Positions 2,996 through 59,701 of a stretch of DNA of 64,000 nucleotides are shown one piece after another. The stretch is taken from the NCBI GenBank assembly GCA_000004985.1, contig GG738847.1; one strand, 5' to 3'. The stretch comes from Naegleria gruberi. Its lineage: Eukaryota. A program made the translations under genes and the position numbers. Numbering within the stretch: position 1 is the stretch's first letter; every line of letters begins with the position of its first letter. The notes beneath the pieces are model-generated. The model made no database searches. It was given only the letters and a program-made list of their open reading frames with translations, and was not told the DNA's origin.

Positions 2996-4207
2996 TTATA
3001 TTGTAAGATCTATTAATTGTTTCATTTCAGTGAAGTATTTTGTTCCTTCTTCAGTAATAAAATTGTTTCTAATATCAAGTTTGGTCAATTGTTTCAATTC
3101 ACTAATGTATTTAGCTCCTTCATTACGAATCTTATTGTTATTAATATAGAGATAGATCAATTTCTTCAATTCTCCAATAGGCATAGCTCCTTTATCGCCT
3201 AAATGATTAGTTTTAATATCAAGATAGATCAATTGTTTCAATTCACTTAAATATTGAGCTCCTTCATCTCCAATTCTATTATAAGATAAATCAAGACTTT
3301 TTAATTGTGCCAATTGACCAAAATATTCAAGTCCTTCATCACCAATATCATTTTTACAAATATCAAGATTTTTCAATTGATTCAATGAACTAATGAATTT
3401 AGATCCTTCATTTCCAATACGATTGCTATTAATATGAAGAGTGGTCAATTGTTTCATTTTGCTTACATATTTAGCTCCTTCATCACCAAGCCAATTACTG
3501 GAAATATCAAGACAGGTCAATTGTGTTAATTCACTTAAATATTTAGCTCCTTCAGCACCAATATCATTTTCATCAATAGAAAGAGTGGTCAATTGTTTCA
3601 ATTCACTTATGTATTTAGATCCTTCATTACCAACACGATTGCAAAAAATAATAAGAGTGGTCAATTGTTTCAATTCTCTTAAATGTTTAGCTCCATACTC
3701 AGAAATACCATTACTAGGAATACTAAGATAGGTCAATTGTTTCAATTCACTAATATATCGAACTCCCTCATCACCAATATGACTTCCATAAATCGTAAGT
3801 TTGGTCAATTGTTTCAATTCACTTATATATTTAACTCCTTCTTCATCATCACATCTAATGATAAGTTTAGTTAATGATTTCATCAAGATTAATTTTCTAT
3901 AGGTATCCCTTGTGATCACACCAACTTTAAGAGTTGCAATATTCTGTAAAAATCGGCCACTCATTCCACCAACACCACCAAATCTACAATTCAGATTGAG
4001 ATGATTACATGTTGATAAAATAACATGGAACCACTCTTTGGATACCAATGCACAATTCATGACAATAAATTTAAAATCATCCAAGAAGGACAAAATTTCA
4101 TAAATAATGTCAGTGGGGAATTTATAATCTTGCGACAGTAAGTTCTCCGTACTTGTTTCTGCTTCTTCTTTGTGTGAAAGTTGGATACACATTGTGTGTT
4201 TGTCCAT
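2996..4207 (-). CDS. F-box / RNI-type leucine-rich-repeat protein: N-terminal F-box plus ~13 x 24-aa LRRs (LKQLTxLxIxxNxIGxEGAKYIS)
   Basis: Single exon. ATG at 4207-4205 in caaaaaaaATGgac context, TAA at 2996. The F-box motif is PTDIIYEILSFLDDFKFIVMNCALVSKEW. The 72-bp DNA periodicity (agtgaattgaaacaattgacc...) is visible by eye. Confidence 0.85.
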   Translation of the reverse strand: MDKHTMCIQLSHKEEAETSTENLLSQDYKFPTDIIYEILSFLDDFKFIVMNCALVSKEWFHVILSTCNHLNLNCRFGGVGGMSGRFLQNIATLKVGVITRDTYRKLILMKSLTKLIIRCDDEEGVKYISELKQLTKLTIYGSHIGDEGVRYISELKQLTYLSIPSNGISEYGAKHLRELKQLTTLIIFCNRVGNEGSKYISELKQLTTLSIDENDIGAEGAKYLSELTQLTCLDISSNWLGDEGAKYVSKMKQLTTLHINSNRIGNEGSKFISSLNQLKNLDICKNDIGDEGLEYFGQLAQLKSLDLSYNRIGDEGAQYLSELKQLIYLDIKTNHLGDKGAMPIGELKKLIYLYINNNKIRNEGAKYISELKQLTKLDIRNNFITEEGTKYFTEMKQLIDLTI

Positions 4208-4653: not shown

Positions 4654-7600
4654 ATGTACATAAAACCATCAAGATCCTCTTCACAGCTGAACAAACACTT
4701 CATATTCCTATTGATTCTCATCATATTGTCCATTTCCTTCATTAATGCACAATCCAAGACAATCATCTTCCTTCCCTTCTGTTCCTCCCTCACAATCTCT
4801 CCAACCAGTAAGGTATTGAGCTCCAACTCACTCTCTCTTACAATATCAGCTCCGAACACTCTGTGGTAGGTTTATCATATATTCGGAATGTTAACATTTG
4901 TAAATTGTTAAGGTTGCCAAAATCAACAGGCCAATATTATCAATTGAACACCTTGACAGCGAGTGATGCTACTGAACAGATCAAGTCACTAGTCGTTCTG
5001 TCTGATCCTAAGGCTGGTGTTGCTAGATCTCCTTCAACTGTTTCTGTTCTATCTGCTTCATCATTTAGTGTTCAATTTACTGGATTGACTAGCAATGCTC
5101 GATTCACATTATTAATTGCTTATGGATTTGCTTATTTGGATGTGGAAACTACCAGTTATGTTCAATTAATTATGATATCCTCACAGTCAGTGTATAACTA
5201 TGCTACAGGAACAGCTCAAATTGAGACATTTGCTTTACAGAACTCGTATGAGAGCTCATTGGGTCAATTTTGTTTATCTAATTTATCTCCATATGCATTG
5301 ACATATCTTTCTCAAATTGATAATATTCGAAACAATGTATTTTCATCTCCATATCTTCAATCTCAAAAATTAATTCTCAATGGTAAATGGAATGGACAAC
5401 CAACTTTACAAAAAATTACAGAATTTGTTTCGAATGGATTCACCTATCAATTGAAGAGTAGTATTGATATCCAATTCCAAGAATTAGCAAATACTCAAAT
5501 CATAATTCCTTTACAATTCAAGAGACATATTGGAGCTGTCTTTGAAAAGATTGATATTGATGATTTCAAGATTAGTGAAAGACCAGCTGATCCGCAAGAA
5601 TTGGAAAGTCTATTCGAAAGGATACGTCAAGAAACTATCTTTTACAAGGTGAGTCTTGATCCTAATACCGCTCCAGTCTCTCAGGAATATTTAACAGGAG
5701 CAGCTGCTGAAACTAATGTTGCCATTCTAATGACCTATGCCTATTACTGGGCAGATTTCTTTGATTGGTATCGTAATCCAATGGTCAGAGTGATAATCAA
5801 GGATGGTATTATTGGAATGATTAGTATTTCAGTGGCAGGTCTCAATTATTTCACATGTCCTTATGGTTCTCTTCGTAGTGAGATACAACACTTTACTCAG
5901 GGAGACTCCTACCATTCGATTGGTTATTCCTCCATCCATTCGATATACACATTTGCCTATGATCAAAAGAATTGGAAAATCAATACGCAAGTGAATATCA
6001 ATACTAATGGAATGGTTGCAAATGTTGCCAGCCTGTCAAATTTTGAAAATTCCTTGAGTTGCATTGATGGAAATTTCAAAGTAACCCTCTCGGATAATGT
6101 ACTAGCAGATTATGAAAGCTTTTTCACTGATAACTATATGATTTCCAAGATTGATACTAGAATGTCCATTCAGTCAATTGAAAATTTTACACTTCTCTAC
6201 GTTGACGATTTGGGAAGTGAATTCACAGGCCCATTAATTACACCAGAGAGTTTCGTTGGAGATTTGCAATTCAATCCAGGATTTTGTGATGAAACTATTG
6301 GTACTGGATTAGGAAATCAATTATCTTACTATTTTTCTTCTAGTGATTTTTCAGTCGAAAGGTTTCCAGAATATTCGACAAGATTGAGCTATGAAAATGG
6401 AGTTTCTTATCTTTCAGATACAAATTCTGTTGGTTTAAAGTATTCCAATCATGAATATTTGCAGGATTTCTCCATAGAAATTGATCAATCTATTCTATTA
6501 TATAAGGAACCCAAAGTTTCATCTGTGAATTTCACATTAATTCCAAATCGTTCAGAATGGAATGAAATGAATGCTACAATTCAAATATTTTCCTTTAACA
6601 GTGGGGATTGGGGTGGTGAATTCACTGTTGAATTGACTTGTTCCTATCCAATCATAATTTCCAATAATTCGCCTCAGAAATTCAACGTGGAGCCAGGACA
6701 AAACTTTACAGCCTTCTTCACTGTCAAGAGTGATTTCGACTCGTGCAAAACTGTATCCCTCCAATCTGTGTGTGATTTCAAAATTTCCATCAAGAAAGAA
6801 CAATTGTGGACTAATCTAGAAAAGGAAATTTCTGCCCATGAATCTGTGGCCATAGATTATGGATATTTCATTCCAAGATGTCAAGCCAAATATAATGAAC
6901 CATTCCTCTGGCTGGAGAATATGACCCTATCCTCTCCATATTTCCAGAGAAGTGCCCATGATGGATTTGTCAACTCAATTCTCGTAGTTTTGAAAACTAA
7001 TAGTTCAGATTTAATCCTTTCGAATATTGCAAGCGGTCTGTTGGCAGATTCTAATAATCCATTCCACTCATGGAAAGATTACTCAATTATTATGCAACAT
7101 GCTGAATATTACATGTTGAACTTTACGATTTCAAGCACAAACGTTGCTAGAATTTTAAGTGAACGAGTTGACCAAACGCTTTACACATTCTCCCTCAATT
7201 TAACTCTATTAGATAATTATATTTGTTGGTCAACAAATGGAAAAGGAGGAATCTTCCCATTTTCCTTTAGTGTTGCCTACGATTGTCCAATCGAGTATAC
7301 CGGTATCCAATGTGATATTCCATTATGTTATGGAATTAATGCAACCAATTATACGAACGTATGTTCAGGTCATGGTGATTGTGTATCGCCAGATTATTGT
7401 TCCTGTCATGCAAATTACACATCTGCCACCTGTTCTGTTCCTATTTGTTATGGTGTTCGTGGAGATAATTTATCTACTTGCTCATCCAAAGGTTCTTGTA
7501 TAGATGCTAATACCTGTACCTGTCAGAATGGTTATACAGGTGTCAATTGTGAAATTCCAATTTGTTTCAATGTTCCAGCTAATTTTTCACATTCATGTTA

Positions 7601-10600
7601 TGGACATGGTAACTGCATTGATCATGATCTTTGTTCATGTAATGATGGATACACTGCTTCATTGAATTGTTCACTTCCAATATGTTATGGATTAGATTCT
7701 AGTCAGCTAATTGTTTGTTCTTCACATGGACAATGTTTGGCTCCAAATAATTGTTCATGTTTTGATGGTTTTACATTCGATAATTGTTCAATTCCAATTT
7801 GTTACAATATTGATGCTTCCAATAGTTCAGTGTGTACTGGATTTGGTGAATGTTATTCTCCAAATAATTGTAAATGTCATGAAAATCATATTGGATTACA
7901 ATGTGAAATTCCAATTTGTTTTGGAGTTCCATCAAATGAAACTCAGTCGTGTAATGGTAATGGACAATGTATTCAATATAATGAATGTGTGTGTCATTTA
8001 GATTATACAGGACTCAATTGCTCCATTCCAATATGTTTTGGAAGTAATGCCACCAACCCAACTGTTTGTTCTTCGCATGGCGTTTGCCAAGCACCAGATC
8101 AATGTCAATGTCATGAAGGATATACTGGAATACAATGTGAAATTCCAATTTGTTTCAACATTCCAGCAACCAATTCCAGCACATGTTCATTCCATGGAGA
8201 ATGTATCGACCATAATCTTTGCACATGTCATGATGGATACACTGCTGCATTGAATTGCTCCCTTCCAATATGTTATGGATTAGATTCTAGTCAATCAATG
8301 GTTTGTTCTTCACATGGTCAATGTTTGGCTCCAAATAACTGTACATGTTTTGATGGTTTTACATTCGATAATTGTTCCATTCCAATTTGTTACAACATAG
8401 ATGCTTCCAATAGTTCAGTATGTAGTGGATTTGGTGAATGTTATTCTCCAAATAATTGTAAATGTCATGAAAATCATATTGGATTACAATGTGAAATTCC
8501 AATTTGTTTTGGCGTGCCATCAAATGAAACTCAAGCTTGCAATGGTAACGGACAATGTATTCAATATAACGAGTGTGTGTGCCACTCAGATTATACAGGA
8601 ATAGACTGTTCAATTCCAATATGTTTTGGAATTAATGCTACTAATCAAAGTCATGTTTGTTTTTCACATGGTATTTGTCAAAAACCAGATCAATGCCAAT
8701 GTCATGAAGGATATACTGGAATGCAATGTGAAATTCCAATTTGTTTCAATATTCCAGCTATTAATTCCAGCACATGTTCATTCCATGGAGAATGCATTGA
8801 TTTCAATCATTGTTCTTGTCATGATGGATACACTGCTTCATTGAATTGTTCACTTCCAATATGTTATGGATTGGATTCTAGTCAGCTAATGGTTTGTTCT
8901 TCACATGGTCAATGTTTGGCTCCAAATAATTGTTCATGTTATGAAGGATATACAGCTGAAAATTGTTCCATTCCAATTTGTTACAACATTGATGCTTCCA
9001 ATAGTTCAGTATGTAGTGGATTTGGTGAATGTACTTTTCCAAATAATTGTAAATGTCATGAAAATCATGTTGGATTACAGTGTGAAATTCCACTTTGTTT
9101 TGGCGTGCCATCAAATGAAACTCAGTCTTGCAATGGTAATGGACAATGTGTTCAATATAATGAATGTGTGTGTCATTCAAATTATACAGGAATAGATTGC
9201 TCAATTCCATTATGTTTCAATATCAATGCCACCAACCCAACTGTTTGTTCTTCGCATGGTATTTGTCAATCACCAGATCAATGCCAATGTCATGAAGGAT
9301 ATACTGGAATGCAATGTGAAATTCCAATTTGTTTCAACATTTCAGCTAATGATTCCAGTACATGTTCATCCCATGGAGAATGTATCGATTTCATGATCTT
9401 TCACTGTCATGATGGATACACTTCAGCAAATTGTTCAATTCCAATATGTTATGGATTAGATTCTAGTCAATCAATGGTTTGTTCTTCACATGGACAATGT
9501 TTGGCTCCAAATAACTGTACATGTTTTGATGGTTTTACATCTGATAATTGTTCAATTCCAATTTGTTACAACATAGATGCTTCCAATAGTTCAGTATGTA
9601 GTGGATTTGGTGAATGTTACTTTTCCAAATAATTGTAAATGTCATGAAAATCATGTTGGATTACAGTGTGAAATTCCACTTTGTTTTGGCGTGCCATCAA
9701 ATGAAACTCAATCTTGCAATGGTAATGGACAATGTGTTCAATATAATGAATGTGTGTGTCATTCAAATTATACAGGAATAGATTGCTCAATTCCATTATG
9801 TTTCAATATCAATGCCACCAACCCAACTGTTTGTTCTTCGCATGGTATTTGTCAATCACCAGATCAATGCCAATGTCATGAAGGATATACTGGAATGCAA
9901 TGTGAAATTCCAATTTGTTTCAACATTTCAGCTAATGATTCCAGTACATGTTCATCTCATGGAGAATGTATCGATCATGATCTGTTGCACATGTCATGAT
10001 GGATACACTTCAGAAAATTGTTCAATTCCAATATGTTATGGATTAGATTCCAGTCAGTCAATGGTTTGCTCCTCGCATGGCCAATGCTTAGCTCCAAATA
10101 ATTGTTCGTGTTTTGAAGGTTTTACATTCGATAATTGTTCCATTCCAATTTGTTACAACATAGACGCCACCAACCAATCAGTATGTAGTGGATTTGGTGA
10201 ATGTTCTTCTCCAAATAATTGTAAATGTCATGAAAATCATGTGGGATTACAATGTGAAATTCCGCTATGTTTTGGAATTGCATCAAATGAAACTTTGGCA
10301 TCGTGCAATGGAAACGGCCATTGTTTTGCAGTGGATTCTTGCTCTTGTAATCAAAATTATACTGGAGCCAATTGTTCTATTCCTATTTGCTTTGACTTCA
10401 ATGCCACCAATTCGAAGGTATGTTCGGGACATGGAAGTTGTTCGAAACCAAACTATTGCGAATGTTTTGAAGGTTATATGGACACCCAATGTGAAACTCC
10501 AATTTGTTTTGATATTCCAGCAACTATGAATAATACCTGTTCTGAAAATGGCATTTGCCAAGATTACAATCATTGTAATTGTAGCTCTGGGTTTACTTCT

Positions 10601-13600
10601 TCAAATTGTTCAATTCCTATTTGTTTCGGTTCGAATGCCACTGACGAAACAGTATGTTCCTCACATGGTCAATGTCTTTCTCCTAATAATTGTTCCTGCA
10701 GTGATGGATACATGCATTCAGATTGTTCTCATCCAATTTGTTTCGGGCTTGAATCAACTAATCGAAACTCTTGTTCTACTCATGGCACTTGCATTTCACC
10801 AAATTCATGTCAATGTGATGGCAATCATGTAGGTGACATGTGCGAAATTCCACTTTGTTTCAATATCCCGGCCAATCATAACTCAACTTGCAGCTCAAGT
10901 GGAAAATGCATTGGTGTGAATTTGTGTGAATGTTATGGAAATTTCACAGGAATGAACTGTTCTGTTCCAATTTGTTTTGATGAGAATTCAACTTCCATTA
11001 TGAGTTGCTCGTCGAGAGGAAGATGTATTGGACCCAACCTGTGTGAATGTCAAGTTGGATATACTGGTAGCGTTTGTGAGTATCCTGTTTGTTACGGTTT
11101 CTATTCGGAAGATGTAAATTCATGTTCAGGACATGGAGAATGTATTGACTATAACAAATGTCAATGTGAAAATGGGTACGTTACTGAGAATTGTTCCATT
11201 CCTGTGTGTTTTGGTTTGAATAGTTCAGATTCCAATGTTTGTGCTTCCCATGGCGATTGCTTGTCACCAAATAATTGTTCATGCCATGAAGGATTTACAT
11301 CAATCAATTGTTCCATTTCAATTTGTTATAATTCACCTGCCACTGACCCATTTGCATGCAATGGAAAAGGAAATTGTGTAAATCCAAATGAATGCGCCTG
11401 TCAAGAAGGTAACATAGGATTACAATGTGAGATTCCACTTTGTTTTGGCGTGCCATCAAATGAAACTCAGTCTTGTAGTGGTAATGGAGAATGTATTCAA
11501 TATAATGAATGTATGTGTCATTCAAATTTTACAGGACTCAATTGTTCCATTCCAATATGTTTTGGTATAAATGCCACTGATCAAAGTCACGTTTGTTTTT
11601 CACATGGTATTTGTCAAGAACCAGATCAGTGTCAGTGTCATGAAGGATATACTGGAATACAATGTGAAATTCCAATTTGTTTCAATATTCCAGCAACCAA
11701 TTCCAGTACCTGTGCATCCAATGGAGTTTGCATTGATTTCAATAATTGTTCTTGTCTTGATGGATACACTTCGGAAAATTGCTCCCTCCCAATATGTTAT
11801 GAATTGGATTCTGGTAAATCAATGGTTTGTTCTTCACATGGTCAATGTTTGGCTCCAAATAATTGTACATGCCTTGAAAGATTTACATTCGATAATTGCT
11901 CCATTCCAATTTGTTACAATATTGATGCTTCAAATAGTTCAGTATGTAGTGGATTTGGTGAATGTTCTTCTCCAAATAATTGCAAATGTCATGAAAATCA
12001 TATTGGATTACAATGTGAAATTCCACTTTGTTTTGGAATTCCATCAAATGAAACTCAGTCGTGTAATGGTAATGGACAATGTATTCAATATAATGAATGT
12101 GTGTGTAATTCAGATTATACAGGAATAGACTGTTCAATTCCAATATGTTTTGGAAGTAATGCCACCAACCTAACTGTTTGTTCTTCGCATGGTATTTGTC
12201 AATCACCAGATCAATGTCAATGCCAAGAAGGATACACAGGTACCAACTGTGAAATTCCCATTTGTTTCAACATTCCAGCTAATGATTCCAGTACATGTTC
12301 ATCCAATGGAGAGTGCATTGATTTCAATAATTGTTCTTGTCATGATGGATACACTTCAGAAAATTGTTCAATTCCAATATGTTTCAATTTGAATAGTACT
12401 GATTCTAGTGTTTGTAACTCTAATGGAATTTGTACTTCCCCTGACAAGTGTCAATGCCAAGAAAATTTCACAGGTGAAAATTGCTCAATTCCAATATGTT
12501 TCGGATTGGCAGCAAACTCAAGCGGGGCATGCTCCGCATCTGGAAGTTGTGTTTATCCCAATACATGCCTCTGCAACCAAGGAATCATTGGCATTAATTG
12601 TGAAATACCTTCCTGTTTTGGAATATTCCAAAATAATAGCCAATCCTGCTCAGGAAATGGAATTTGCATTGAACTGAACAAATGCTCATGCTACCTAAAC
12701 TTCACAGGTGAATCCTGCTTAATTTCTGCATGTAATGGTATTGCCTCTAATGATAGCTCTGTTTGTTCCGGAAAAGGAAAATGCACAGCTCCAAATCTTT
12801 GTGAATCATGTGAGGAAAATTACTTTGGAGAATGGTGTGAAATTTCACAATGTTTTGGAATATTCTCGAATCAGAGTCAAGTTTGTTCTGAAAATGGAAA
12901 GTGTGAATCTTACAATAATTGTAATTGCTCAATGGGTTATGTTGGGGAAAATTGTAATATTCCTGTATGCTTTAAAATTAATTCAACCGATGAAAATGTT
13001 TGTAATTCTAATGGAATTTGTACTTCTCCTGATTTGTGTTCATGTAATTCCAAATATGGAGGTTTAGAATGTTCAGAACCGAAATGTTTTGGAAAAACAA
13101 CATTAGAAGGTGCATGCAGCTCGAAAGGTAATTGCACACAACCAGATTCATGTACTTGTGAGAAAGGTTTCTTTGGTATTTCATGTGAATTGCATTCTTG
13201 TTTTGGAATTCAATTGAATGATTCGAGTGTGATTTGTTCTGGACATGGTGAATGCAAATCTCTGGACGAATGTGAATGTGACAGTGGTTACTTAGGTGAA
13301 TCATGCTCCATCCACACCTGTTTTGGGATTACATTCAATGAGAGTGGTGTTTGCAGTGGAAATGGAAGTTGCTCAAGTTTGGACAACTGTACCTGTTATG
13401 GAGATGGAAAATTCTATGCAAATTGTACTTTAATTCCAAGTGATTCTCCAATAATTGATAGTGATGTACCTTCGAATCATACAGAAATATCCAATAATTC
13501 AAGTTCTTATCCAAATTGCTTTAACATTTCGGCAAATCATTCGAATGTTTGCAATGGAAATGGAAATTGCACAAGTGAAAATGAATGCAAATGCAGAGAG

Positions 13601-15835
13601 GGATATTTTGGTGGGGAATGTTCTCTATTTGCATGTTTTGGAAAGGAATCAGCTGATTCAAGTGTTTGTTCATCCAATGGAATATGCGCGAGTCCAAATA
13701 CTTGTAAATGTCGACCAGAAAGATATGGCTCTCAGTGTCAACTTGTCAAATGTTTTGAAATTCTTTCTAATCAGTCCAATGTTTGTTCCAGTAAGGGTTC
13801 ATGTCAAGATACCAACGCATGCATATGTAATGAGGGCTATTTCGGCCCCATGTGTAATATCACAAGTTGTGAAGGAATTTTGAGTAATAATTCTCAAGTT
13901 TGTAATGGAAGTGGACAATGCACTCATTACAACACTTGCCAATGTAAGGAAGGATTCATTGGATTGAACTGCCAATTCACCAAATGCAACTCTACATCGT
14001 GTAGGCATGGAAGTTGCATCACTACCTCTCAGTGTGAATGCGAAAGTGGATGGACAAGCTCGGAATGCAATCTTCCTATTTGTTACGATTTGTTGGCAAG
14101 TGACTCGAATGTTTGTTCTACACATGGCAAATGTATAGCTCCAAATAAGTGTAACTGCTCCACAAATCCATTGTACATGGGTGATAAGTGCCAATACTTA
14201 CAATTAGATAGTTTGCAATGTAGTATTAATCCATCACTCAATTTGATACCAATTGAGTGGACAATTTCAGGATTGGATAAAATAACATTTGATATGAGCT
14301 CGAAGGAAATACTTGTTAGAAACAGTATCCCATACAGTACATCTCTCCATTCCAAATCAAAATTCAACTACGAGCTCAATATTTACAACACTGGAAAGCG
14401 ATCTTTCAATTATCAAATTAATTCATTCTGTGAAAATGGAATTTCATTCAAACAATTGGGAATTTCTTCTCAATTCGGATTATTACAAGAAGGAAACAAT
14501 GCAAATATTAAGGATTTACAAAATATTGGATTTGCTCTCTTTTGGAATGATGAAAGTTTGAAATATGAAGATATTAAATGTCATGTCGAATTAATAGTCA
14601 ATCCGAAAGATCAATTCGATGAATGTCAACACTACGATTCGAATACTGAAACATCCTCCAAATATAATATTACTCTCATATTGGAACGTACAAATGTTTG
14701 TCAATTTTTGAAAGAAACAGATTTACCACTGACCTTTTCAAGCACTCAATTGTCAACCATGAGTGAAATAGCTCTAATTGATGAAAATATTCTTTCAGAT
14801 AACGATATTCTCAAAATTATTAATACATTCACTCAAAAGAGGAATAACTGGCAAATAATTAATAAGGACAACAGTACTCTTCAAGCTAACATCTTGTTAA
14901 CTGCCCAGTTGAGTAATCCAAACAATGAATTGGGACTTTTTGTTCCATCTCTGATATGTAAGGATGAAAGAATTGTTGATGACATAGAATTTACCACAGA
15001 ATATCTTTCCAATCAATCTCCATTCTCCATTTCTCACTCTCTACAAAAGATTCAATTCCAATTCAATGTTACAATTAAGAATGTTTCGAATTATGTTGAT
15101 TATGGTAGAGTGAGAGGAGGAAAGGAAGGAATGGCAACAGTTCTCATTGAGGACATGCTCCTTAATTGTTCTCTCATTCTCCTACCAAATCCATCTGAGT
15201 GTTGGTCCAACACGAATAGAAATTCCACATTCTCCAAATATATCATTTCACACTTTACACTGCCAATTGTTTCTGGTGAATTTTCATTCTTCCAAGCTGT
15301 GAGATCCTTCGAAATAGGTATCATTACACTTACCTACACTTGTATGGGCATTGGTTTTGCATCCATGATATGCACGACCAAAGTTCCTCGAGATCGAAAA
15401 CATTCTCTGCTCCAACTTGTAGAATTTGTCAAGGAAAAGAGAAGAAACAAACTCAACTCTACATCTGATGACTCCAAACCACTCCTAGAGAATCAAATTG
15501 ATAGGCCATACTGTGAAAATTGTGGTCATCACACTCGGAAGAAAGCTCGTTATGCCATTCGTGTGGAAAATTATGATGCTAATTGCGAAATGTTCATTTG
15601 TGAGAATCAGGTATGTTTTGAAGCCATGATCTCTCTCCACAATAGAGGATACTCCCATCACTATCAATGTTTCGACTTGGATAAAGAAGAAGATTGTCAA
15701 CTCATGATTGAAACACCATTCAAGACACTTGCTGATAATTTTGATGAGTCGGATATTTATGAATCTATGGATATTGAATTTCCAATACCTTCCGATATCA
15801 ATGATGATGAAGAAGATGACTCTGATTTATTCTAA
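4654..15835 (+). CDS. Giant type-I transmembrane protein (~3,700 aa). Signal peptide, ~750-aa non-EGF N-terminal region, ~58-60 tandem tenascin-type EGF-like modules, a TM helix and a Cys/His-rich cytoplasmic tail. The reading frame is interrupted twice (near 9613 and 9985)
   Basis: Exon 1 is 4654..4807 (ATG in aaaaaaaATG context; signal peptide FIFLLILIILSISFINA). Intron is 4808..4929 (GTAAGG...ACAG). Exon 2 starts at 4930 in the frame of track ORF 4863..9632. Modules follow C-x-(I/V)-P-(I/L)-C-(F/Y)-x(5-8)-C-x(2)-(H/N)G-x-C-x(4)-C-x-C-x(2)-G-(Y/F)-T-(G/A)-x-x-C. Track ORFs 4863..9632 (frame 0), 9577..9999 (frame +1) and 9812..15835 (frame +2) are consecutive pieces of the same repeat array, separated by two 1-nt insertions. 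The TM helix is GIITLTYTCMGIGFASMICTT; the tail CENCGHH...C-x(n)-C is zinc-finger-like. Stop TAA is at 15833-35. Confidence 0.7.
7550..12840. repeat. Higher-order tandem repeat (~587 bp = 5 EGF modules) within the giant EGF gene
   Basis: Anchor gaaattccaatttgtttcaa recurs at 7551, 8139, 8730, 9318, 9904, 11664 and 12251. Copy 9043-9400 is near-identical to 9629-9990. The middle units (10000-11600) are more diverged. Confidence 0.8.
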
Positions 15836-15937: not shown

Positions 15938-17248
15938 ATGGGTCAACCAATGAATAGACAATTACAGCACACTGGTTTGATATCAGAAAGTGTAAATGAA
16001 GTATTCGCATCGGAAGATGAAACTCTCTCGGAAAATGTAACAATTTCTGATCAGAATAACCCTCTATTTGTTTTTGATATATTGTCTGAGATTTTCTCAT
16101 ATTTGGATAATTTTACAGTTTATTTGAGATGTGTATTGGTTTGTAAAACTTGGAGATATTGTGCTTGGCATTTGTTGGATGAATTTAATTTTAGATATGA
16201 TGATTTGGATTTGTTATTTTATGGGAAAGAGGGAGAACGAATTGCCAAGCAATTTAATCCTTCTCTTGGAAGATCGGAGGCAGTCCGATTGAATAATACT
16301 CAAATGTTGGAGTACATGTTGAATTTAATTGTGAGAAATGCTAGATATTTGAAAAAGTTTAATGTTGTTGGAGCACAACAGAATGAGGATATTAAAAAGA
16401 TGATCAATGATGAGAGAATTGCACTCTTGATGAGATCTTGCTCTGAAAACTTGGAAATGTTGGATTTATCTTCTTGCGATAATTTGAAAGAGGTTTCGTA
16501 TAGTCAAATACTGAACAAGTGTAGAAAAACTTTGAAATCACTCAAACTCAGATGTAGTTTAAGCATTAGAGATACCTTTGCTAAGGATTATATTTCAACA
16601 CTGGAATCTTTGGAGTATCTCAATCTTTCGAAATGTTGTTACATTGGACTTTATAGTTTAATACCAATTTCTACCAATTGTACGAAATTGAGAGTTTTGG
16701 ATGTGTCTGGATGCACGTCATTTTATGGATTTAGCTTTTTAAGGAATTGTACAGTATTGGAAGAGTTACATGTACAAACAACATATTTTTCCTCAGATGA
16801 TTTCCAATACATTCCAAATTCATTGAAAATTTTGGATGTGCAAAATTGCGAACAAGTGAGAAGGTTGAATCATGTAGCAAACTTGGAACACTTGGAGGAA
16901 ATCAACCTTTCCTACAATAACATTCAACTTGAAGGAGAGTGGAAGAATCACGTTATGAAATGGAAAATTCTAAAGGCAATTTCAGTACCAGTTGGCTGCG
17001 AGTTATTAGACCAAACACCATACTTGAAACATTTAGAAATTGGTTTCCTTGAAGCCTCTGCTAGCATTACAATGCTAAGTGTTCTCAAGAGGTCTCATTC
17101 ATTCACAGAGGAAGATTCAACAGCCAAGCTCAGCACCAATCTGAAACATTTACTCATAACTGATTCACACCTTACTCACTCTTTTGTTGAAGAATTGAAA
17201 TACTATTGTCCTTCAATAGTATTAAAAACTCGACGTTGCAATATCTAG
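15938..17248 (+). CDS. F-box/LRR protein (FBXL-type, cysteine-containing LRRs)
   Basis: Single exon; ATG at 15938 (aaaaaaaaaATGggt), TAG at 17246-48. F-box is FDILSEIFSYLDNFTVYLRCVLVCKTWRY. Cys-containing LRRs follow (LDLSSCDNL, LNLSKCCYI, LDVSGCTSF). Confidence 0.8.
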   Translation: MGQPMNRQLQHTGLISESVNEVFASEDETLSENVTISDQNNPLFVFDILSEIFSYLDNFTVYLRCVLVCKTWRYCAWHLLDEFNFRYDDLDLLFYGKEGERIAKQFNPSLGRSEAVRLNNTQMLEYMLNLIVRNARYLKKFNVVGAQQNEDIKKMINDERIALLMRSCSENLEMLDLSSCDNLKEVSYSQILNKCRKTLKSLKLRCSLSIRDTFAKDYISTLESLEYLNLSKCCYIGLYSLIPISTNCTKLRVLDVSGCTSFYGFSFLRNCTVLEELHVQTTYFSSDDFQYIPNSLKILDVQNCEQVRRLNHVANLEHLEEINLSYNNIQLEGEWKNHVMKWKILKAISVPVGCELLDQTPYLKHLEIGFLEASASITMLSVLKRSHSFTEEDSTAKLSTNLKHLLITDSHLTHSFVEELKYYCPSIVLKTRRCNI

Positions 17249-23133: not shown

Positions 23134-24438
23134 TTATTCCTTCTTGGCTTCTGTGGTAGCTGAAGGAACAACTTCCTTCTTTGTTGGCATGGTAAAGGAG
23201 AGTTTACGAACAGAGAGGAATTCCTTGACTTGTTCATCGGTAATCTTCTTTCTTCTCTCTTGATGTTCGGCAACCATCTTTTGCAAGAGGTCAATCAATG
23301 CTCCCTTGACTTGACCAGTCAACATCTTACCAGTTGAGTACTTTTCACGAATATCTTCTAATTGGACATCATCTTCCAAGAAGAATTGCAAATATTGATA
23401 AGGAACGTCAACAGCCAAGTTAGCTCCATACTTTTCTTGGTCTTCCTTGGTGGCACCACCTCCAGAGAAGGCATGTTTGTTAATCTTATCCTTAATTTGC
23501 TTTGGAGTATCTGTCAAGAAGATTGAAGAAGTGTCAGATGAGGATGACATTTTCTTGTTAGCACCTTGCAAAGCAGGGAAGAATTTGGAGTGAATGAGAG
23601 CTGGCTTTTGGAAACCCAATTTTGGAGCAACATCTCTTGTCACTCTAAAGTATGGATCTTGATCAATAGCACATGGAATCAAACACATAATATCATTCTT
23701 TCTCTTTGTCTTCTTTTGCTTCTTTTTATCTTCAGCTGTTTCTGGGAAAATGTGTGGGAATGAAGTATAGAAGGAAGGAGCAGCTTGAATAGCAGGGAAT
23801 GAGAATTTACCAATATTATCGGAATCTTCAAAACCAAAAACACCTTTAACTTGACTACAAGTTACAGACTTTTCAATTTCGAGAACAGTTCTATATAAAT
23901 GTCCCATATAATCCAAATTGGAGAAGATGAAAGTCTTACTCATATCAAAACCACAGGCAATAATATCCTTGGCGTTTTCATAAGTCAAACGATGAGCTTC
24001 TTCCAATTCCAACTTTTTCCACAAGAACTTTTCATCATCGGTCATTTGAACTACCAAAGGAACATCAAAAACATCTTGCAAATATTTAGTAAACATGAAA
24101 GGAATCAAGTGACCCAAGTGCATTGATTCACTGGATGGTCCTCTACCAGTATATAAATAAAAAGGTTTGCCTTGTTCATAGTAATCCAACAATTTGTGCA
24201 TATCACGATGTGAGAAGAAAATTCCTCTCTTCAAAAAGTGGTGGACAGGCTTCTTGGTAACACGTTCAATACGTTCTAACAAATCTTCAGAAATTGCTTG
24301 AGAACCGAATTGATTAATTAATTTACCATAATCGACACCATCATCACCAGCATCAACATCCCAAGGGGTGACTATTTGTTCCTTCTTTTCTTGTTGTTGT
24401 TCAGTGCTTTGTATTGGTTCTTGTGGTTGTTCGGACAT
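23134..24438 (-). CDS. WARS: Tryptophanyl-tRNA synthetase, cytoplasmic type (class I)
   Basis: 434 aa, single exon; ATG at 24438 (caaaaaaATGtcc), TAA at 23134. Motifs are HLGHLIPF (HIGH-type) and KMSSSS (KMSKS-type). Strong overall similarity to eukaryotic TrpRS. Confidence 0.9.
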
Positions 24439-36482: not shown

Positions 36483-36553
36483 GGGGGCGAGGGGGAATCG
36501 AACCCCCGGCCACAGCTTTGGAGGCTGCGATGTTACCATTACACCACCGCCCC
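36483..36553 (-). tRNA. tRNA-Trp (anticodon CCA), 71 nt, no encoded CCA
   Basis: Cloverleaf folded by hand. Acceptor GGGGCGG/TCGCCCC (G7-U66). D arm GTGT-AATGGTA-ACAT. Anticodon stem GCAGC/GCTGT with loop CTCCAAA (U33, C34-C35-A36, A37). T arm GGGGG-TTCGATT-CCCCC. Discriminator C. Confidence 0.75.
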
Positions 36554-40880: not shown

Positions 40881-42302
40881 TTACCATTCCAAAGATCTTT
40901 TGGATAGAGATTTCAAAGTTGGACTATTTTCAGAGTAGAATTGCGAATACCATCTTCTAAATTGACCTATTGGTCCATCAGTTCTCACCAACACTGGCTT
41001 TGGAAGATAGGTTTTGGTATTCCAAATTGGAATGTCTTGTTCCACAAAGGAGGTCATCAAGATTAAAAACCACTTGGCAAAGAATCTAGGAATATACCAA
41101 GGAACATAGAGAACATGTTCAACATGTTGATGAAGAGGGCCAACTGGAGTTACGGTCTGAACGAGATCAAACTTTCCTAAAATTGTAGAAAACTCAAACA
41201 TGACCAAACCAGGTCCATATTGACCTCCCTTTACATCCACAACACTGAATGGAATTTTCAACCTATCATTCATGGCAGTTGAAACGTGTTGAACTTGAAA
41301 GTAAGCCACATGGGAATCTTCCTTCTTTTCACCTTTTTGCCACTTGGCTCCCCAAATATTCCACACAAATCCAAAAGTATTTCTCATTTCTCTATGGACA
41401 ACATTTAAATGATTGGCATCTGGTCCATTCTCTGGAATTTCCTGAATATGACAATAGATGTGATGAGCAATCTTTCCATGTGTGAAGAGATTTTGTCTTA
41501 CTGATGGTGGTTGCCAATGAGGTTCACGACCCTCTGCATCAAACCACAAATAGACGTTATCATTTCTTTCAATAATTGTATAACTCTTGGTGTGGGCTTG
41601 TGATGGAATGCCATCTCTATGTTCACACTCTTCCACTTGTTCACAAGATTCAGCCAATTTTCCACTCTTGTTTTTTGCAATATCAAGAGTTGAATCTTGA
41701 ACAGATAGCTCACTTTTGAATTGACCATTCTTTTTCAAAATTGGCATTGGAAGTGGAGAATCACCAACGGAAACACATTTTCCCTCTCCATTGAATGACC
41801 AATGATGAAATGGACATGTCAAACATTCACCATTGACACTTCCCAATGACAGATTAGCTCCCAAATGAGTACAGTAAGCATCGATAGCATGAACTGTTTT
41901 GGAATGTTGAGCTCTATAGACAGCTAGTTCTAGACCTAACATGCTCTTGTAGATTACTTGTCCAGGGGAAAGATCCCATGAATTGCAGATTTTGAACCAT
42001 CCATTTGGATAAACTGGTGGAAAGTCACCAATTCTCTTTCTACTCTTGGAAGCCAAGAAGGAAGTTCTGGTGGATGGTTTCATTTCGGAAAGTTTAGGTT
42101 CAAGATCAATGAATCTATCAAGAGGATGAAAGAATGAAGAGTAAACTTCCGAAATCAAACTCTTTAATAATTTCCATACAATTGCAAGCACAATAATTGA
42201 AACTCCCAATATGCAAATGTTATTAAAGCTTGTAATATTTTCCACATCAATTGATTGATAAATTTTGGAAAGTGACTGATGGAAGAGAGTTTCGTCTTGC
42301 AT
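40881..42302 (-). CDS. Rieske [2Fe-2S] non-heme-iron oxygenase, Neverland/DAF-36-like (putative sterol C7-desaturase)
   Basis: 473 aa; ATG at 42302. N-terminal TM helix ICILGVSIIVLAIVWKLL. Rieske motif CTHLGANLSLG...CPFHHW. Mononuclear-iron motif D-A-N-H-L-N-V-V-H. Confidence 0.7.
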   Translation of the reverse strand: MQDETLFHQSLSKIYQSIDVENITSFNNICILGVSIIVLAIVWKLLKSLISEVYSSFFHPLDRFIDLEPKLSEMKPSTRTSFLASKSRKRIGDFPPVYPNGWFKICNSWDLSPGQVIYKSMLGLELAVYRAQHSKTVHAIDAYCTHLGANLSLGSVNGECLTCPFHHWSFNGEGKCVSVGDSPLPMPILKKNGQFKSELSVQDSTLDIAKNKSGKLAESCEQVEECEHRDGIPSQAHTKSYTIIERNDNVYLWFDAEGREPHWQPPSVRQNLFTHGKIAHHIYCHIQEIPENGPDANHLNVVHREMRNTFGFVWNIWGAKWQKGEKKEDSHVAYFQVQHVSTAMNDRLKIPFSVVDVKGGQYGPGLVMFEFSTILGKFDLVQTVTPVGPLHQHVEHVLYVPWYIPRFFAKWFLILMTSFVEQDIPIWNTKTYLPKPVLVRTDGPIGQFRRWYSQFYSENSPTLKSLSKRSLEW

Positions 42303-43224: not shown

Positions 43225-44097
43225 ATGCGTCGACCGGGAATTGAAATTTCCTTTTTTGGAATTCATTTAACTTTTAATTTTATGATGAAATTATGAATGT
43301 TTTATTTTAATATTATTCATGATGTGAAACATCATGTTGAATTCTGTTCATAATATTTAATTCATGATGTGAAACATCATGTTGAATTATTAACAAATGT
43401 TGTTCTTCAATTTTTAATTGAATGTTGTTCTTTCATTGAATGTTGGAAATATTGGAAAGTTGGAAATAAAAGTTGGAAGTTAGGTAACGGGTTATGGAAT
43501 TACCTAATGTGGAAATTGAATTCAATTTTGAAATTGAATTAATACAATGTTTTTTAAATTATTATTATTTAAATGTATTTCACACATTAATTTTGATAAT
43601 GTAATATTAAAGATATTGATAATTGGGTATAGGGAAACGGAATTTCCTAATTGGGAGTCATCACACAATAAATTAAATTTATTATTTATTCATTGATGAT
43701 GTTCACAAACTTTGAATTAACATATTACATGATGAATCAATTACAAAATTAACATCACTATTATTCTGGGGGCAAAATGAACATTAACCATCGGGTAACG
43801 GAAATTGACACATATACCACTTAATTAACAAATTGAATATTAACCATCGGGTAACGGATTTTAATACATGTATTAGTATGTTGATAATTGGTCGACGCAC
43901 AGAAATTTAAATAAACAGAATTAACAAGAATAAAAGCAAAATCCTACATAAGAGTTGGAGAACGGGAAATGAAATTCCCAAATTGAGAAACACAACATGC
44001 ACAATCACAATAATTCATACTATCAAAATGAATTGAACCCGGGTCACGGCGATGGCAACGCCGTATTCTACCACTAAACCATCGACGCTTCTTATTA
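43225..44097 (-). pseudogene. tRNA-Gly (anticodon GCC) gene interrupted in the T-loop by a ~785-bp insertion
   Basis: The 5' part (44097->44030, minus strand) is GCGTCGATGGTTTAGTGGTAGAATACGGCGTTGCCATCGCCGTGACCCGGGTTCAATTC. It gives a perfect acceptor, D and anticodon arm (loop TTGCCAT) plus the 5' T-stem. The 3' part (43244->43225) is TTCAATTCCCGGTCGACGCA. It supplies the T-loop, 3' T-stem, the acceptor 3' strand pairing GCGTCGA, and discriminator A. The 8-nt TTCAATTC is present at both junctions. Confidence 0.75.
43245..44029. mobile_element. Non-coding ~785-bp insertion within the tRNA-Gly gene, flanked by an 8-bp direct duplication (gaattgaa on the + strand); likely a non-autonomous insertion or repeat element of unknown class
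   Basis: No ORF. Content: AT-rich; direct repeat of a 28-bp unit, each with a 7-bp-stem hairpin (catgatg-tgaaa-catcatg) at ~43315-43400; five degenerate copies of a CGGGAAnTGAAA / GGAAtTTCC-type motif; aaccatcgggtaacgga twice; and a GGTCGACGCA fragment in opposite orientation at ~43891-43900. No clear TIRs. Confidence 0.5.
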
Positions 44098-52349: not shown

Positions 52350-52422
52350 GGGGATGTAGCTCACATGGTAGAGCGCTTCTTTAGCATGGAAGAGGTACGG
52401 GGATCGATACCCCGCATCTCCA
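52350..52422 (+). tRNA. tRNA-Ala (anticodon AGC), 73 nt
   Basis: GGGGATGTAGCTCACATGGTAGAGCGCTTCTTTAGCATGGAAGAGGTACGGGGATCGATACCCCGCATCTCCA. G3:U70 alanine identity pair. Anticodon loop TTAGCAT. Close match to canonical eukaryotic tRNA-Ala-AGC. T-loop begins A54 (ATCGATA). Confidence 0.85.
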
Positions 52423-52436
52423 CTCAGTATTTTTAA

Positions 52437-54721: not shown

Positions 54722-57700
54722 TTAAAGCTCTGATAAGCCCATCGATAATCGCACCAACTTTCTCAATTTTCCATAAAATTGGTCTAATTTTTCAGAATCA
54801 ATACTGTTGGCATCTGTTGCTGAATAGAATTGTTCTTCTCGCTGTCTGATATATGCAGATACATTATATCTAAGGAGAAGTCTGTCAGATTCATCAAGTG
54901 ACTCTTCTTCATCTGAGTCAGAGGTTGAAAGTGTTGAATATGTTGAACAACCATTACCAATTAAATGTTTGAGGTTTTTCAATAATAAAAAGAAAGATGC
55001 ATCTCTAACTCCCCATATGACCAATAAACTTGGTAAGATACATAATGAAATAGCAATTAGAGCTACCAAATAAAACAATGAATAATCTCCCAATACTAGG
55101 AAAACTCTCCACAATCTTCCTTCCAAATGTCCCAAATTTCCTCCCAAAAACGACATGCTATTAACAATAAGGAATACACAAATACTTAATCCCATTATAA
55201 CAGTTGATAATCTCAGATTTAGTAAAGAAGGGGATGGTTTTTGAGTGATACCAGGATGGAATTTTACATGATTACACCTTTCCATTATCATAACTGTTAG
55301 ATATTGTACAGAAACAATAATAAAAATCATCAAACTATTAATATGCTCCAAATCATTTTTAAATTTCCCAAATCTAGATATTTCAATATTTAGAGAATTT
55401 TCATGAAAATTTTGAGGTCTACTCAAAATATTGGCTCCATAATAACCAATTCCAAAGCAAGTGAATAATACAATAATAAAACCTTGATAGGCAGCATTCA
55501 AAAACCATAAAAATAAGCTGGTTTGTGTTAAGGTTTCTCCTCTTCTGGAGGATCTGTATAGCTCTGGAATCTTTTCTAGAGCCATATCAGAAACTTCAAA
55601 TGAATGTCCATTATTAGCACTTCCCAATTTAAGTGAAGCTGGAGTAATGTACCGTATTAAATCTCCAATTCTCACATCCCCCATAGAAAATGCAAATGGC
55701 ACAACACTAGTATAAAGGATGTTATAAAAAACCAGAGAATGGGATTGTAAAATAGTATTTCCACTGAAATAGGTGAAAAGTAAATTATAAACAAGCTGGC
55801 ATGCAGCCAAAACAACTGATTTGTACATGGTGTACTGTGAAATGAGAGCCAATCTCTTGTAACTGTTTCTTCCATGCACAAGTAAGAGACGTTTCAACAT
55901 ACTAAATCTTGGAATGCCAAAATCAGCTGCTCTAACAGCCTGTAAATGTTCTGACTCTGTATTGACCTCTTGATGAGTTTCTTGATCTATTTTGGCACTC
56001 GAACTGATACCAATACCAACATCTGCCTCTAGAATCATGTTACAATCATTTCCACCATCTCCAATAGCCAAACAAATTGGAGAGGAGAGCGATTGAAGTC
56101 TATTGTTGGAATCTTCTGAGGAGAGCGGATATTTAATGAGTCTGACAATCTTTCCTTTCAATTTGGGAGTCATTCTGCAGCTAACACATGCATTCACTGA
56201 TTTGCAAAGCTTTAAAAAAGTTGAAACATTCTCCAAATCTGTTGACTCTTGTTCATCCAATATGAAATTCAATACTCTTCCTTCAAATACTAAACATTTG
56301 AAAATATTAGATTCCAATTCATCGTATTTTTCTGAAATTATTCTCAGAGAATCTCTAACAGAGGAGAAGGAATTTCCTTTCAGATGGGATATATCGATTA
56401 AATCTTGATGTAATGAAGGAACCAGATGACAGGCATGAGCAATTTGTACAGCTGTTTCCATCTTGTCACCTGTGAGCATCCAAATAGAGATTCCAGCCTC
56501 TCTCAAGCTATCAATACACTCACCAACTCCTTCTTGAAGTTTATCTTCCATAGCAGTGGCTCCATGTAACAGAAACTCCTTCTCTATTGAATCGACAATT
56601 GGTTGTTGTTCTCCTTCTTCCATTTGTGAAATTGTTTCCAGGAAAGTGGTGACTTCCTCCATAGCAAGCTCTTTACCAGCCATAAGCATTACTCTAAGTC
56701 CTTCTTTCGAGGCAAGATTCTGAATGTGACTCAAGGTTTCTTGTAGTATTTCAGCATTTGCTTGATTGTTCATCCTCTCACAAATAACATCATCTGCTCC
56801 CTTACAGAAAATATAATATTTACACTGGTTTGGATCGTCAGATATTCTTTTTACAATTATGGACATTCTTCTTCTATCTGAAGTGAAGTGAATTACTTTC
56901 AATATATTATATTCCTCCAAAGTAAAATTATTAGCATCTGAATGGATTCTCAAAATCATTCTTTCCTCATCTCTGTAATTTAAAACAACTCCTTGATATG
57001 CTGCATATTTGACAAAGGCATCCTCTTCGGGCGAGCTCGATCTGTAATGTGGCAAGAAGGATCCACTTGTTGAATTGTCGCAATAAACTGTATGGCAAAG
57101 GGCCAAATTTCTCAGGAAGGACAATGTGCTCTCTGTAAAATTACATTGCTCATTGAGGAAACCAATTTTGTGAGTATTTATGCTGGTAGGATGATGAGAA
57201 ACTGAGGCATCAACAACCTTTCCATCAACAATAACTCTAGAGAGTGTCAATAAATTCTCTGTTAGGGTACCTGTCTTGTCACTGAAAATGTAATCTATTT
57301 GACCCAAGTCCTCTGCTACAGAAGTATTGGATGCACTAGTTCTATTCCCCTGAGCATCACATAAAAGGTCATCTTTTGGTATGAAAAACATTGAGATAAT
57401 GTACTTGGCTACATCTGACGTGATTTTCAAAGATTGTGGAATCATTAGAGAGCATAACATGGTAAATCTCAGAGGTATGATTAGGTAAGGCAATATCTTT
57501 TCAGCAAAATATTCAAGCACATCAAGAATGTAGTAACCAGTGACAAGCTTGGAATGTTGAAAATCTACGGCCGTATTAAGATAAAACATATTCTTTCCAT
57601 TATTAAAATAGAGATAATTGCCAATTAATCCAAAGGCCAATCCAATAGAAAACTGGACAATAAAAATTCCAACTACTACATGGTTGATAAAGTTATCCAT

Positions 57701-59446: not shown

Positions 59447-59701
59447 TTTTTTTAATTTCACTTCTAAAATTGGGTATTAATGGGTTGTGCTTGGAATTAA
59501 TAATTTAATGTATAATTTAATATTAAATTAAATTGTATTATTTATTGGTTGATTTGAGTGAAACTAATTTTTGAAAATTAATTTTCAATTAATATTAATG
59601 TTGTGTTCGAATATTTATATCACTAAGTTTATAATCTGGATATGTAGTTTCCACATCGAGGACTTGATTTTTTAATCTTTCCTTAAAAAGCTATTCAATA
59701 A

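Follow-up and report, generated by a model that had tools for sequence, protein, structure and literature searches.

A giant EGF-repeat membrane protein of Naegleria gruberi with a probable HAP2/GCS1-derived extracellular head

The gene described here occupies ~11.2 kb at positions 4654-15835, on the + strand, of a 64,000-nucleotide stretch of contig GG738847.1 of Naegleria gruberi (assembly GCA_000004985.1); this whole stretch is called the window below. Once two single-base frameshifts are repaired, its product counts ~3,710 residues, and we lean towards the view that it is a single large type I surface glycoprotein combining a head that resembles HAP2, a stalk of EGF modules and a conserved cytoplasmic tail, with a role in adhesion, recognition or tethering. 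The head itself is probably a divergent ectodomain derived from HAP2/GCS1, that is, from a fusexin. The original prediction for this locus, made by reading the sequence, had recognized a giant EGF-repeat receptor-like gene with a Cys/His-rich tail; the identity of the head and the range of the family come from the present analysis.

The family was delimited by an exhaustive phmmer search with the last 550 residues against 1.84 billion representative proteins, which returned only two clusters. The first is represented by a fragment from N. fowleri (E 2.6e-115) and contains the full-length protein KAF0982280.1 / XP_044566993.1 (FDP41_011210, 2,986 residues), named in the database 'EGF-like domain-containing protein'; the second is KAL9658154.1 of Willaertia magna (2,171 residues, E 1.1e-65). 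Both orthologues contain a head, an EGF array, a membrane-proximal region, a transmembrane segment and a tail in the same order as in N. gruberi. The heads are 35% (N. fowleri) and 26% (Willaertia) identical to that of N. gruberi over more than 800 residues, and the C-terminal parts 45% and 36%, while the number of EGF modules, estimated from the Cys count, varies from roughly 20 in Willaertia to roughly 36 in N. fowleri and 58 in N. gruberi. The same search gave no match in Acrasis, which is present in the databases, or in other eukaryotes, and the family seems, by sequence, to be confined to Naegleria and Willaertia. A word-indexed query with the head retrieved no match, in part because the complete N. 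fowleri sequence is hidden there behind the C-terminal fragment that represents its cluster, and literature searches with the orthologue accessions retrieved no paper. Comparison with social amoebae, advised in the original prediction, turned out to be off target, N. gruberi being a heterolobosean amoeboflagellate. Poly-N tracts occur in the Willaertia protein; the dictyostelid source that they had suggested was dropped. Kinship with the trypanosomatid DGF-1 proteins was likewise dismissed: no N. gruberi matches are reported in the DGF-1 preprint, which describes its EGF-like hits as local similarity only.

The N. gruberi locus is read as one gene in the following way. Two long open reading frames (ORFs) lie on the + strand, 4863-9632 (1,589 residues) and 9812-15835 (2,007 residues). 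Deleting one base at ~9618 and one at ~9984-9986 brings both into a single frame, so that the repaired frame runs uninterrupted between the ATG at 4654 and the TAA, and a three-frame reading of 9400-10000 shows the EGF modules running on unbroken across both +1 shifts. At the 5' end, two introns restore the frame. The one implied by the original prediction (4808-4869, 62 nucleotides (nt), after a 154-nt leader exon) is less likely, on the alignments, than a 47-nt intron at 4866-4912 following a 212-nt exon 1, which we prefer because its longer exon gives the higher alignment score against either orthologue (70.9 vs 50.8 bits for N. fowleri, 45.1 vs 35.0 bits for Willaertia). Read through to 4865, exon 1 ends in ...SPTSKVLSSNSLSLTISAPNTLW, which aligns with ...SPNNVVIPSGSMLTLTVSHPNDLY of N. 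fowleri; splicing at 4866-4912 then yields ...SPTSKVLSSNSLSLTISAPNTLW/LPKSTGQ..., the counterpart of ...SPNNVVIPSGSMLTLTVSHPNDLYMPTLSKT... in that species. The expected signal peptide and single transmembrane segment were recovered as the two strongest hydrophobic segments of the product, with Kyte-Doolittle values of 2.26 and 1.67; the latter, FEIGIITLTYTCMGIGFASMI, is followed by KVPRDRKH. By hydropathy and sequence, the protein thus has the type I topology of the HAP2 family, with an N-terminal signal peptide and a single C-terminal transmembrane segment. Because the orthologues of N. fowleri and W. magna are single uninterrupted proteins, the comparison supports the continuous ~11 kb gene proposed originally, and hence the reading of the locus as encoding one giant type I membrane protein.

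The non-EGF head extends over ~830 residues after the signal peptide, rather than the ~750 first estimated, and the description of this region as unique has to be given up: orthologous heads exist, and the Pfam and Foldseek results make a HAP2/GCS1-like ectodomain its most likely identity. The Pfam family concerned is PF10699.14, HAP2-GCS1 ('male gamete fusion factor'), whose profile has a length of 515 and a gathering score of 27.4 bits. The N. fowleri head matches it with 33.8 bits (E 1.9e-8), residues 416-671 of the segment scanned aligning to profile positions 182-436; a consensus emitted from the three-species head alignment scores 28.4 bits (profile 283-452), again above the cut-off, and a sub-segment of the Willaertia head 24.4 bits (profile 279-452), below it. 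All three align co-linearly with one region of the profile, and a fragment of canonical Naegleria HAP2, taken from the supplement of PMC9928731 and used as a control, scores 260 bits. Class II fusion proteins consist of three beta-rich domains, a barrel-shaped domain I, an elongated domain II and an Ig-like domain III (PMC8784728), and we infer that profile positions ~180-452 cover part of domain II, domain I and domain III. The N. fowleri match is seen when the head alone is scanned and is gone when the full-length 2,986-residue protein is used. The repetitive EGF part may suppress it, which may also explain the 'EGF-like domain-containing' label of this orthologue; since the HAP2 signal is lost in the full-length scan, standard annotation pipelines will not flag the head. 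Within the N. gruberi head, GLGNQLSYYF can be set against CLGNQLEDL of canonical HAP2 and SIEIDQSILLY against ITMFVDADQLTFLY, and NATIQIFSFNSGDWGGEFTVELTC opens the domain III-like Ig fold.

A second line of evidence is structural. The head was modelled with AlphaFold2 from the three-sequence alignment, with a mean predicted local distance difference test (pLDDT) of 37; as the models are of low confidence, the fold searches served solely to test for rank enrichment, against an internal control. In the Foldseek search of the head model against the PDB, archaeal Fusexin1 came first (E 1.7e-6), P. berghei HAP2 D3 reached a TMt of 0.70 and Arabidopsis HAP2 was also listed, the best neighbours being Fusexin1 and HAP2 from four eukaryotes. 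Several fusexins at the top of a list of 48,000 chains are, even with generic Ig-like sandwiches close behind, hard to ascribe to chance, and the internal control, the membrane-proximal region with its no better model, gave no fusexin.

Downstream of the head, 348 Cys over 2,292 residues make up 58 six-Cys modules, with the 4-10-5-5-1-8 spacing in nearly all of them. The ~58-60 modules of ~39 residues originally counted are therefore borne out (58 of 38-41 residues), and the Pfam families EGF_TEN, EGF_Teneurin and EGF_2 (PF25024, PF23106 and PF07974) match the two ORFs with 285/400, 193/315 and 175/291 bits, far above their gathering scores of 65, 24.3 and 22.1 bits. The linker (I/V)P(I/L)C(F/Y), which had been called invariant, is less regular: in the form x(I/V/L)P(I/L/V)C(F/Y) it was found in 42 of the 55 modules scored and it is mostly missing from the last ~12. 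Other irregularities are a 30-residue spacer at module 53 and a short module 57, and 104 N-glycosylation sequons are distributed across the array. At the DNA level, blastn self-comparison and repeat finding revealed a five-module super-repeat of 588 nt that spans modules 4 to ~27 and 36 to 43; Tandem Repeats Finder reported no repeats, the 588-nt unit exceeding its period limit of 500 nt. The tract 9033-9389 is ~99% identical to 9618-9975, indicating, as far as sequence can tell, a recent conversion or duplication. Between super-repeat units the ratio of nonsynonymous to synonymous substitution (dN/dS) is 0.12-0.29, and the repeats have therefore evolved as coding sequence under purifying selection.

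The sequence is disturbed at three places, all within this repeated part. All of the single-base indels, five to six in number, are packed into ~610 nt; they sit at the two borders of the 99%-identical tract, in each of its copies, and every lesion reads as a mosaic of two repeat types, the first, an in-frame garble, looking like the product of +2, -1 and -1 indels. The other ~10.5 kb are free of stops and frame breaks, and the EGF modules that follow each shift display perfect six-Cys patterns. We consider it fairly likely, from the sequence, that the two frameshifts and the garbled site are errors of consensus or assembly at the repeat edges, because the pattern of the lesions matches the mixed-read consensus expected at a repeat boundary. 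The frameshifts could nevertheless be real, for instance as very recent lesions tied to recombination, which would count against an intact receptor: the gene would then be a recent pseudogene of this strain, or encode a truncated secreted product ending at 9632, its mutations perhaps tolerated under long axenic culture. In favour of such a loss stand the two +1 frameshifts and the garbled site in the sequence as given, together with the reference annotation, which seems to have no model for the giant gene, since neither the head nor the last 550 residues matched any N. gruberi protein in a collection of 5.8 billion proteins that does hold other proteins of this species. This missing model fits either an artefact or a real lesion. 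The clustering and the mosaic nature of the lesions, the clean remainder of the gene, the perfect Cys patterns beyond each shift, a dN/dS well below 1 and the intact orthologues all speak against decay, and we regard it as a possible but decidedly less probable outcome than a sequencing or assembly artefact.

The assignment of the head has to be weighed against a series of observations that do not favour it. The window head gave no match to PF10699 at any reported E-value, either whole or as a sub-segment, so that its connection with HAP2 is transitive and passes through the orthologues and the consensus sequence. The three-species head profile found no HAP2 chain among PDB sequences and aligned to the canonical Naegleria HAP2 fragment with about -1 bit, a non-significant score whose best local path is the GNQL motif. 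With ~10 Cys in ~860 residues, the head does not possess the Cys-rich domain II of HAP2; a by-eye comparison found no counterpart of the GFCCSC motif of canonical Naegleria HAP2, and no fusion loop was identified. Finally, both AlphaFold2 models, built from three-sequence alignments, are poor (pLDDT 37 and 41), and in the Foldseek search generic Ig-like sandwiches score nearly as high as the fusexins. Pfam yielded nothing useful for the window head, the membrane-proximal region or the tail. The PDB sequence searches, run with the tail, the N. fowleri head and both family profiles, brought up at most marginal hits to IsdH NEAT domains (E 0.008, 17 bits), regarded as generic Ig-like similarity, and a borderline DUF1833 match of the three-species consensus (positions 277-353, window roughly 5700-5950; E 2.3e-4, 21.2 bits for a cut-off of 21) is probably due to chance, no real member sequence being matched.

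The absence of a Pfam match for the window head and of HAP2 from the PDB sequence search would also agree with a more ordinary protein: a lineage-specific EGF-repeat receptor for adhesion or phagocytosis, like Eater/Nimrod or Draper/MEGF10, in which the HAP2 similarity would be spurious (a generic Ig-like sandwich plus a marginal profile match) or functionally irrelevant. A signal peptide, a long EGF array, a transmembrane segment and a short tail are indeed the plan of known receptors of this kind, as far as the available part of their description goes, and Naegleria is a phagotroph. This explanation leaves aside that the two orthologues and the consensus match the same region of PF10699, two of the three above the curated cut-off, and that the membrane-proximal control model retrieves no fusexin; we therefore hold it to be unlikely, and retain the HAP2-derived head.

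Between the last EGF module and the membrane lies a region of ~370 residues that the original prediction did not mention. Its model is beta-rich and of low confidence, and Foldseek associated it only with generic tandem beta-sandwiches. Around and after the transmembrane segment, conservation is marked: FEIG..TY..GFAS..K.PRDR is invariant in N. gruberi, N. fowleri and Willaertia, and within the tail the three species share FV..K.R.KL, then C-E-N-C-G-H-x3-K-x3-Y-x-I-x-V-E, then C-E-x-Q-x-C-F-x-A-x2-S-x2-N-x2-Y-x5-C, followed by E-x-PF and the acidic end. The invariant columns of the tail alignment are C444, E445, N446, C447, G448 and H449, then C473, E474, Q476, C478 and F479, and finally C496. 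The N. gruberi tail also carries YESM and a terminal DLF. Measured at ~152 residues rather than ~170, the tail does end in the acidic stretch first described (DDEEDDSDLF). Of its paired Cys and His, the CENCGH...CExQxCF...C framework is common to the three species, and the HH pair and the extra Cys are peculiar to N. gruberi.

At least four conserved Cys/His ligands are thus present in the tail with knuckle-like spacing (C-x2-C-G-H, C-x4-C and one more Cys). Among Pfam families, only the CLIP1 zinc knuckle responded (E 0.06-0.09, 13 bits), no described zinc-finger family being matched, and the PDB contained no sequence match. The model of the motif, a beta-hairpin followed by a helix, has a pLDDT of 39-53. 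A CxxC knuckle and, ~24 residues further, a Cx4C at the start of the predicted helix would fit a small module of the zinc-ribbon or treble-clef type, and it is reasonable to infer from these residues that the motif binds zinc.

The model we propose starts from the geometry of the protein. From the domain III-like fold to the transmembrane segment there are some 2,850 residues (~170, then ~2,300 of EGF modules, then ~370 of membrane-proximal region), in place of the short stem of HAP2. For their mechanism, HAP2 and the fusexins need a compact ectodomain that lies near its anchor in the membrane. With a gap of ~2,850 residues, the canonical class II fold-back that joins fusion loops and transmembrane segment is therefore geometrically unlikely, and a long-reach adhesion, recognition or tethering receptor becomes the most likely reading; the role is drawn from geometry only, which is a point against it. 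Tenascin-type EGF modules are roughly 2 nm long, and the N-glycosylated modules would accordingly form a stalk of the order of 100 nm, carried on membrane-proximal beta-sandwich domains. The HAP2-derived head, held far from the cell, would act as a binding or membrane-engaging module and would be presented to another cell, either a mating partner or prey, or to a substrate or surface. In the cytoplasm, the basic juxtamembrane helix, the Cys motif, which would bind zinc, the E-x-PF motif and the acidic end would connect the head with partners there or with endocytic sorting. The number of EGF modules would have been expanded in a lineage-specific manner by duplication and conversion of the 588-nt five-module unit. 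More tentatively, and with less confidence than in the tethering role itself, one may imagine that vahlkampfiid amoebae have exapted a fusexin ectodomain, turning it into the distal head of a receptor with an EGF stalk of ~100 nm and a putatively zinc-binding Cys-motif tail, giving rise to a new class of HAP2-derived adhesion or tethering receptors that might act upstream of canonical HAP2 in the unobserved mating of Naegleria, or in the capture of prey or host cells.

Could the protein be a working fusogen instead? A HAP2 paralogue driving the fusion of gametes or of other cells, with a stalk that is flexible or proteolytically removed beforehand, would have a head homologous to a known fusogen family and, as observed, would belong to a family under purifying selection. 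Several HAP2 paralogues have been noted in the genus Naegleria, the listed groups being OG0000563 (EFC41606.1 of N. gruberi, KAF0982544.1 and KAF0982545.1 of N. fowleri) and a second one, OG0010275 (PMC9928731); the EGF-stalk family, which includes KAF0982280.1, is a different gene from OG0000563. The fusexin ectodomain is anchored by a C-terminal transmembrane segment and works through a trimeric post-fusion hairpin (PMC8784728). The ~2,850 residues that intervene here, the missing Cys-rich HAP2 motifs, the failure to identify a fusion loop and the presence of a canonical HAP2 already in N. gruberi (EFC41606.1) render a fusogenic function improbable. Least credible is the splitting of the locus into two or three shorter genes encoding a secreted head-EGF protein, an EGF-only piece and an EGF-transmembrane-tail protein, to which the three frames of the unrepaired sequence and the ATG at 9812 might lead: the ORF 9812-15835 opens with ~60 out-of-frame residues where the neighbouring frame reads EGF modules, its product would have no signal peptide, and the orthologues are single proteins. 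The features of the single tethering receptor that we favour are collected in Table 1.

Table 1. Features of the giant EGF-repeat gene (window positions)
Feature	Position	Strand	Description
Exon 1	4654..4865	+	212 nt: start codon, signal peptide and first ~38 residues of the mature head
Signal peptide	4654-4749	+	residues 1-32, MYIKPSRSSSQLNKHFIFLLILIILSISFINAQ, cleaved before S; from sequence reading; hydropathy maximum, Kyte-Doolittle 2.26
Preferred intron	4866..4912	+	47 nt, GTAGGT...TTAAG; frame restored, TG/G giving Trp
Remainder of the ~830-residue extracellular head	4913..7283	+	~10 Cys; end-to-end homology with the heads of N. fowleri and Willaertia
HAP2/GCS1-like core	5982..6734	+	corresponds, in the window, to the Pfam match of N. 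fowleri; GLGNQLSYYF, SIEIDQSILLY, NATIQIFSFNSGDWGGEFTVELTC
Domain III-like beta-sandwich	6516..6863	+	two invariant Cys (ELTC...SVCDF); one stretch of it, alone in the head model, reaches pLDDT 60-73
EGF array	7284..14191	+	~58 six-Cys modules of 38-41 residues; spacing C-x4-C-x10-C-x5-C-x5-C-x-C-x8
Super-repeat zone	7521..12389	+	five-EGF units of 585-591 nt, 79-93% DNA identity
Lesion 1, in-frame garble	9375..9418	+	GECIDFMIFHCHDG replaces GECID(F/H)(N/D)xC(S/T)CHDG; one Cys lost
Lesion 2, +1 frameshift	9618..9618	+	TGT[T]ACTTTTCC; paralogous copy at 9018 is TGTACTTTTCC; terminates ORF 4863-9632
Lesion 3, +1 frameshift	9984..9986	+	CTGTTGCACATGT; intact copies are CTTTGCACATGT
Membrane-proximal non-EGF region, ~370 residues	14192..15307	+	LxCKDERI, FQFNVTI, RGGKEGxA and LNC..L.P.P..CW kept in both orthologues
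Transmembrane segment	15308..15376	+	FEIGIITLTYTCMGIGFASMICT, then stop-transfer K(I/V)PRDR
Cytoplasmic tail, ~152 residues	15377..15832	+	basic amphipathic stretch, Cys motif, conserved E-x-PF, acidic DDEEDDSDLF end
Putative zinc-binding mini-domain	15512..15670	+	C-E-N-C-G-H-x24-C-E-x-Q-x-C-F-x16-C; 5 Cys and 1 His invariant in three species
Stop codon TAA	15833..15835	+	

The window around this gene is AT-rich, with about 34% G+C, and gene-dense; it encodes F-box/LRR proteins, a PTEN-like phosphatase, Elp4, a WD40 protein, a P4-ATPase and an RGS protein. Both neighbours of the giant gene, at 2996-4207 (-) and 15938-17248 (+), combine an F-box with leucine-rich repeats (Pfam F-box-like, LRR_6 and LRR_4), the spacer to the downstream one being only ~100 nt. 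Downstream of the N. fowleri orthologue, on contig ERZ2098899, are found a thioredoxin/UBA/UBX protein and a large TPR protein; these have no counterparts beside the N. gruberi gene, and gene order is not conserved on that side. Further along the window, the ORF at 23134-24438 (-) encodes 434 residues that are 100% identical to NCBI tryptophanyl-tRNA synthetase [Naegleria gruberi], followed by those of N. lovaniensis and N. fowleri (78-80%) and Willaertia magna (76%). The identical synthetase occurs on a 2.7-kb ENA metagenome contig (ERZ929261, run ERR1078381, PRJEB11402), which places N. gruberi, or a strain almost identical to it, in that sample. A Rieske [2Fe-2S] domain and, C-terminally, a domain of the KshA type (3-ketosteroid 9-alpha-hydroxylase-like; E 8e-27) make the 473-residue ORF at 40881-42302 (-) a Rieske-type oxygenase in an amoeba. 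Three tRNA genes were found, dispersed among the protein-coding ones: Trp-CCA at 36483-36553 (-), Gly-GCC at 44018-44089 (-) and Ala-AGC at 52350-52423 (+). A P4-type phospholipid flippase is split over the adjacent ORFs 54722-58309 (-), which matches Pfam PhoLip_ATPase_C and E1-E2_ATPase, and 58379-59461 (-), which suggests an intron or another frame break.

HAP2 and its fusexin relatives are, to our knowledge, the only broadly conserved eukaryotic gamete fusogens. If our proposal is true, the HAP2 fold would be reusable beyond hairpin-driven fusion, or fusion could be organized in a very different way. We know of no observation of sex in Naegleria, although genes for sex are present, and a second, highly derived HAP2-like surface protein would be a candidate for cell-cell recognition in this genus. 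The proposal also concerns the lethal pathogen N. fowleri, in which FDP41_011210, annotated only as 'EGF-like domain-containing', would be a very large and heavily glycosylated surface protein, and the reference proteome of N. gruberi, from which the giant gene is apparently missing.

Several known systems can be compared with the Naegleria protein. With the EGF-repeat receptors of animals, Eater/Nimrod, CED-1/Draper/MEGF10 and PEAR1, it shares a signal peptide, a non-EGF head, a long EGF array, a transmembrane segment and a short tail, and weak Pfam EGF_PEAR1L matches occur in its array. The animal receptors have an EMI or CCxGY head where a HAP2-like head is found here, and in place of NPxY the N. 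gruberi tail shows a Cys motif and an acidic C-terminus. The resemblance, as judged from this shared plan, is one of analogy and not of homology; it is in this sense that we refer to Eater, an EGF-repeat receptor for adhesion and phagocytosis according to the available part of its description (PMC4359741).

The EGF arrays of teneurins and tenascins likewise consist of six-Cys modules set head to tail with very short linkers, and the families matched here, EGF_TEN, EGF_Teneurin and EGF_2, as well as EGF_Tenascin, matched in the Willaertia orthologue, reflect this likeness. Teneurins have 8 EGF copies and tenascin-C about 14. The N. gruberi array differs in its 58 copies and in its modules of 39 residues with 1-3 N-glycosylation sequons each, and the protein is devoid of the YD-shell, FN3 and fibrinogen parts; it comes from a protist and is no orthologue of these animal families.

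The comparison that matters most for our proposal is that with HAP2 and the fusexins (Fusexin1, EFF-1/AFF-1 and the viral class II proteins). The differences are considerable: ~58 EGF modules and ~540 further residues replace the short stem before the transmembrane segment, the head is Cys-poor and has no motif of the GFCCSC type of canonical Naegleria HAP2, its N-terminal ~400 residues are unmatched, the window sequence fails the Pfam test, and the tail has a conserved Cys motif of its own. The common features are the type I topology, the match of the orthologue heads to PF10699 positions ~180-452, the GNQL motif, and the Ig-like sandwich of domain III type with its conserved Cys pair in the N. 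gruberi head. No description was found of HAP2 linked to EGF modules in tandem; what comes closest is the cystine-ladder loop of green-algal (Chlamydomonas) HAP2, which is reminiscent of EGF and has been proposed for species-specific protein-protein contacts (PMC6327110). That loop is a single one of 37 residues inside domain I, with another disulfide connectivity and no tandem array, and what it has in common with the giant protein of N. gruberi is the combination of HAP2 with an EGF-reminiscent Cys module.

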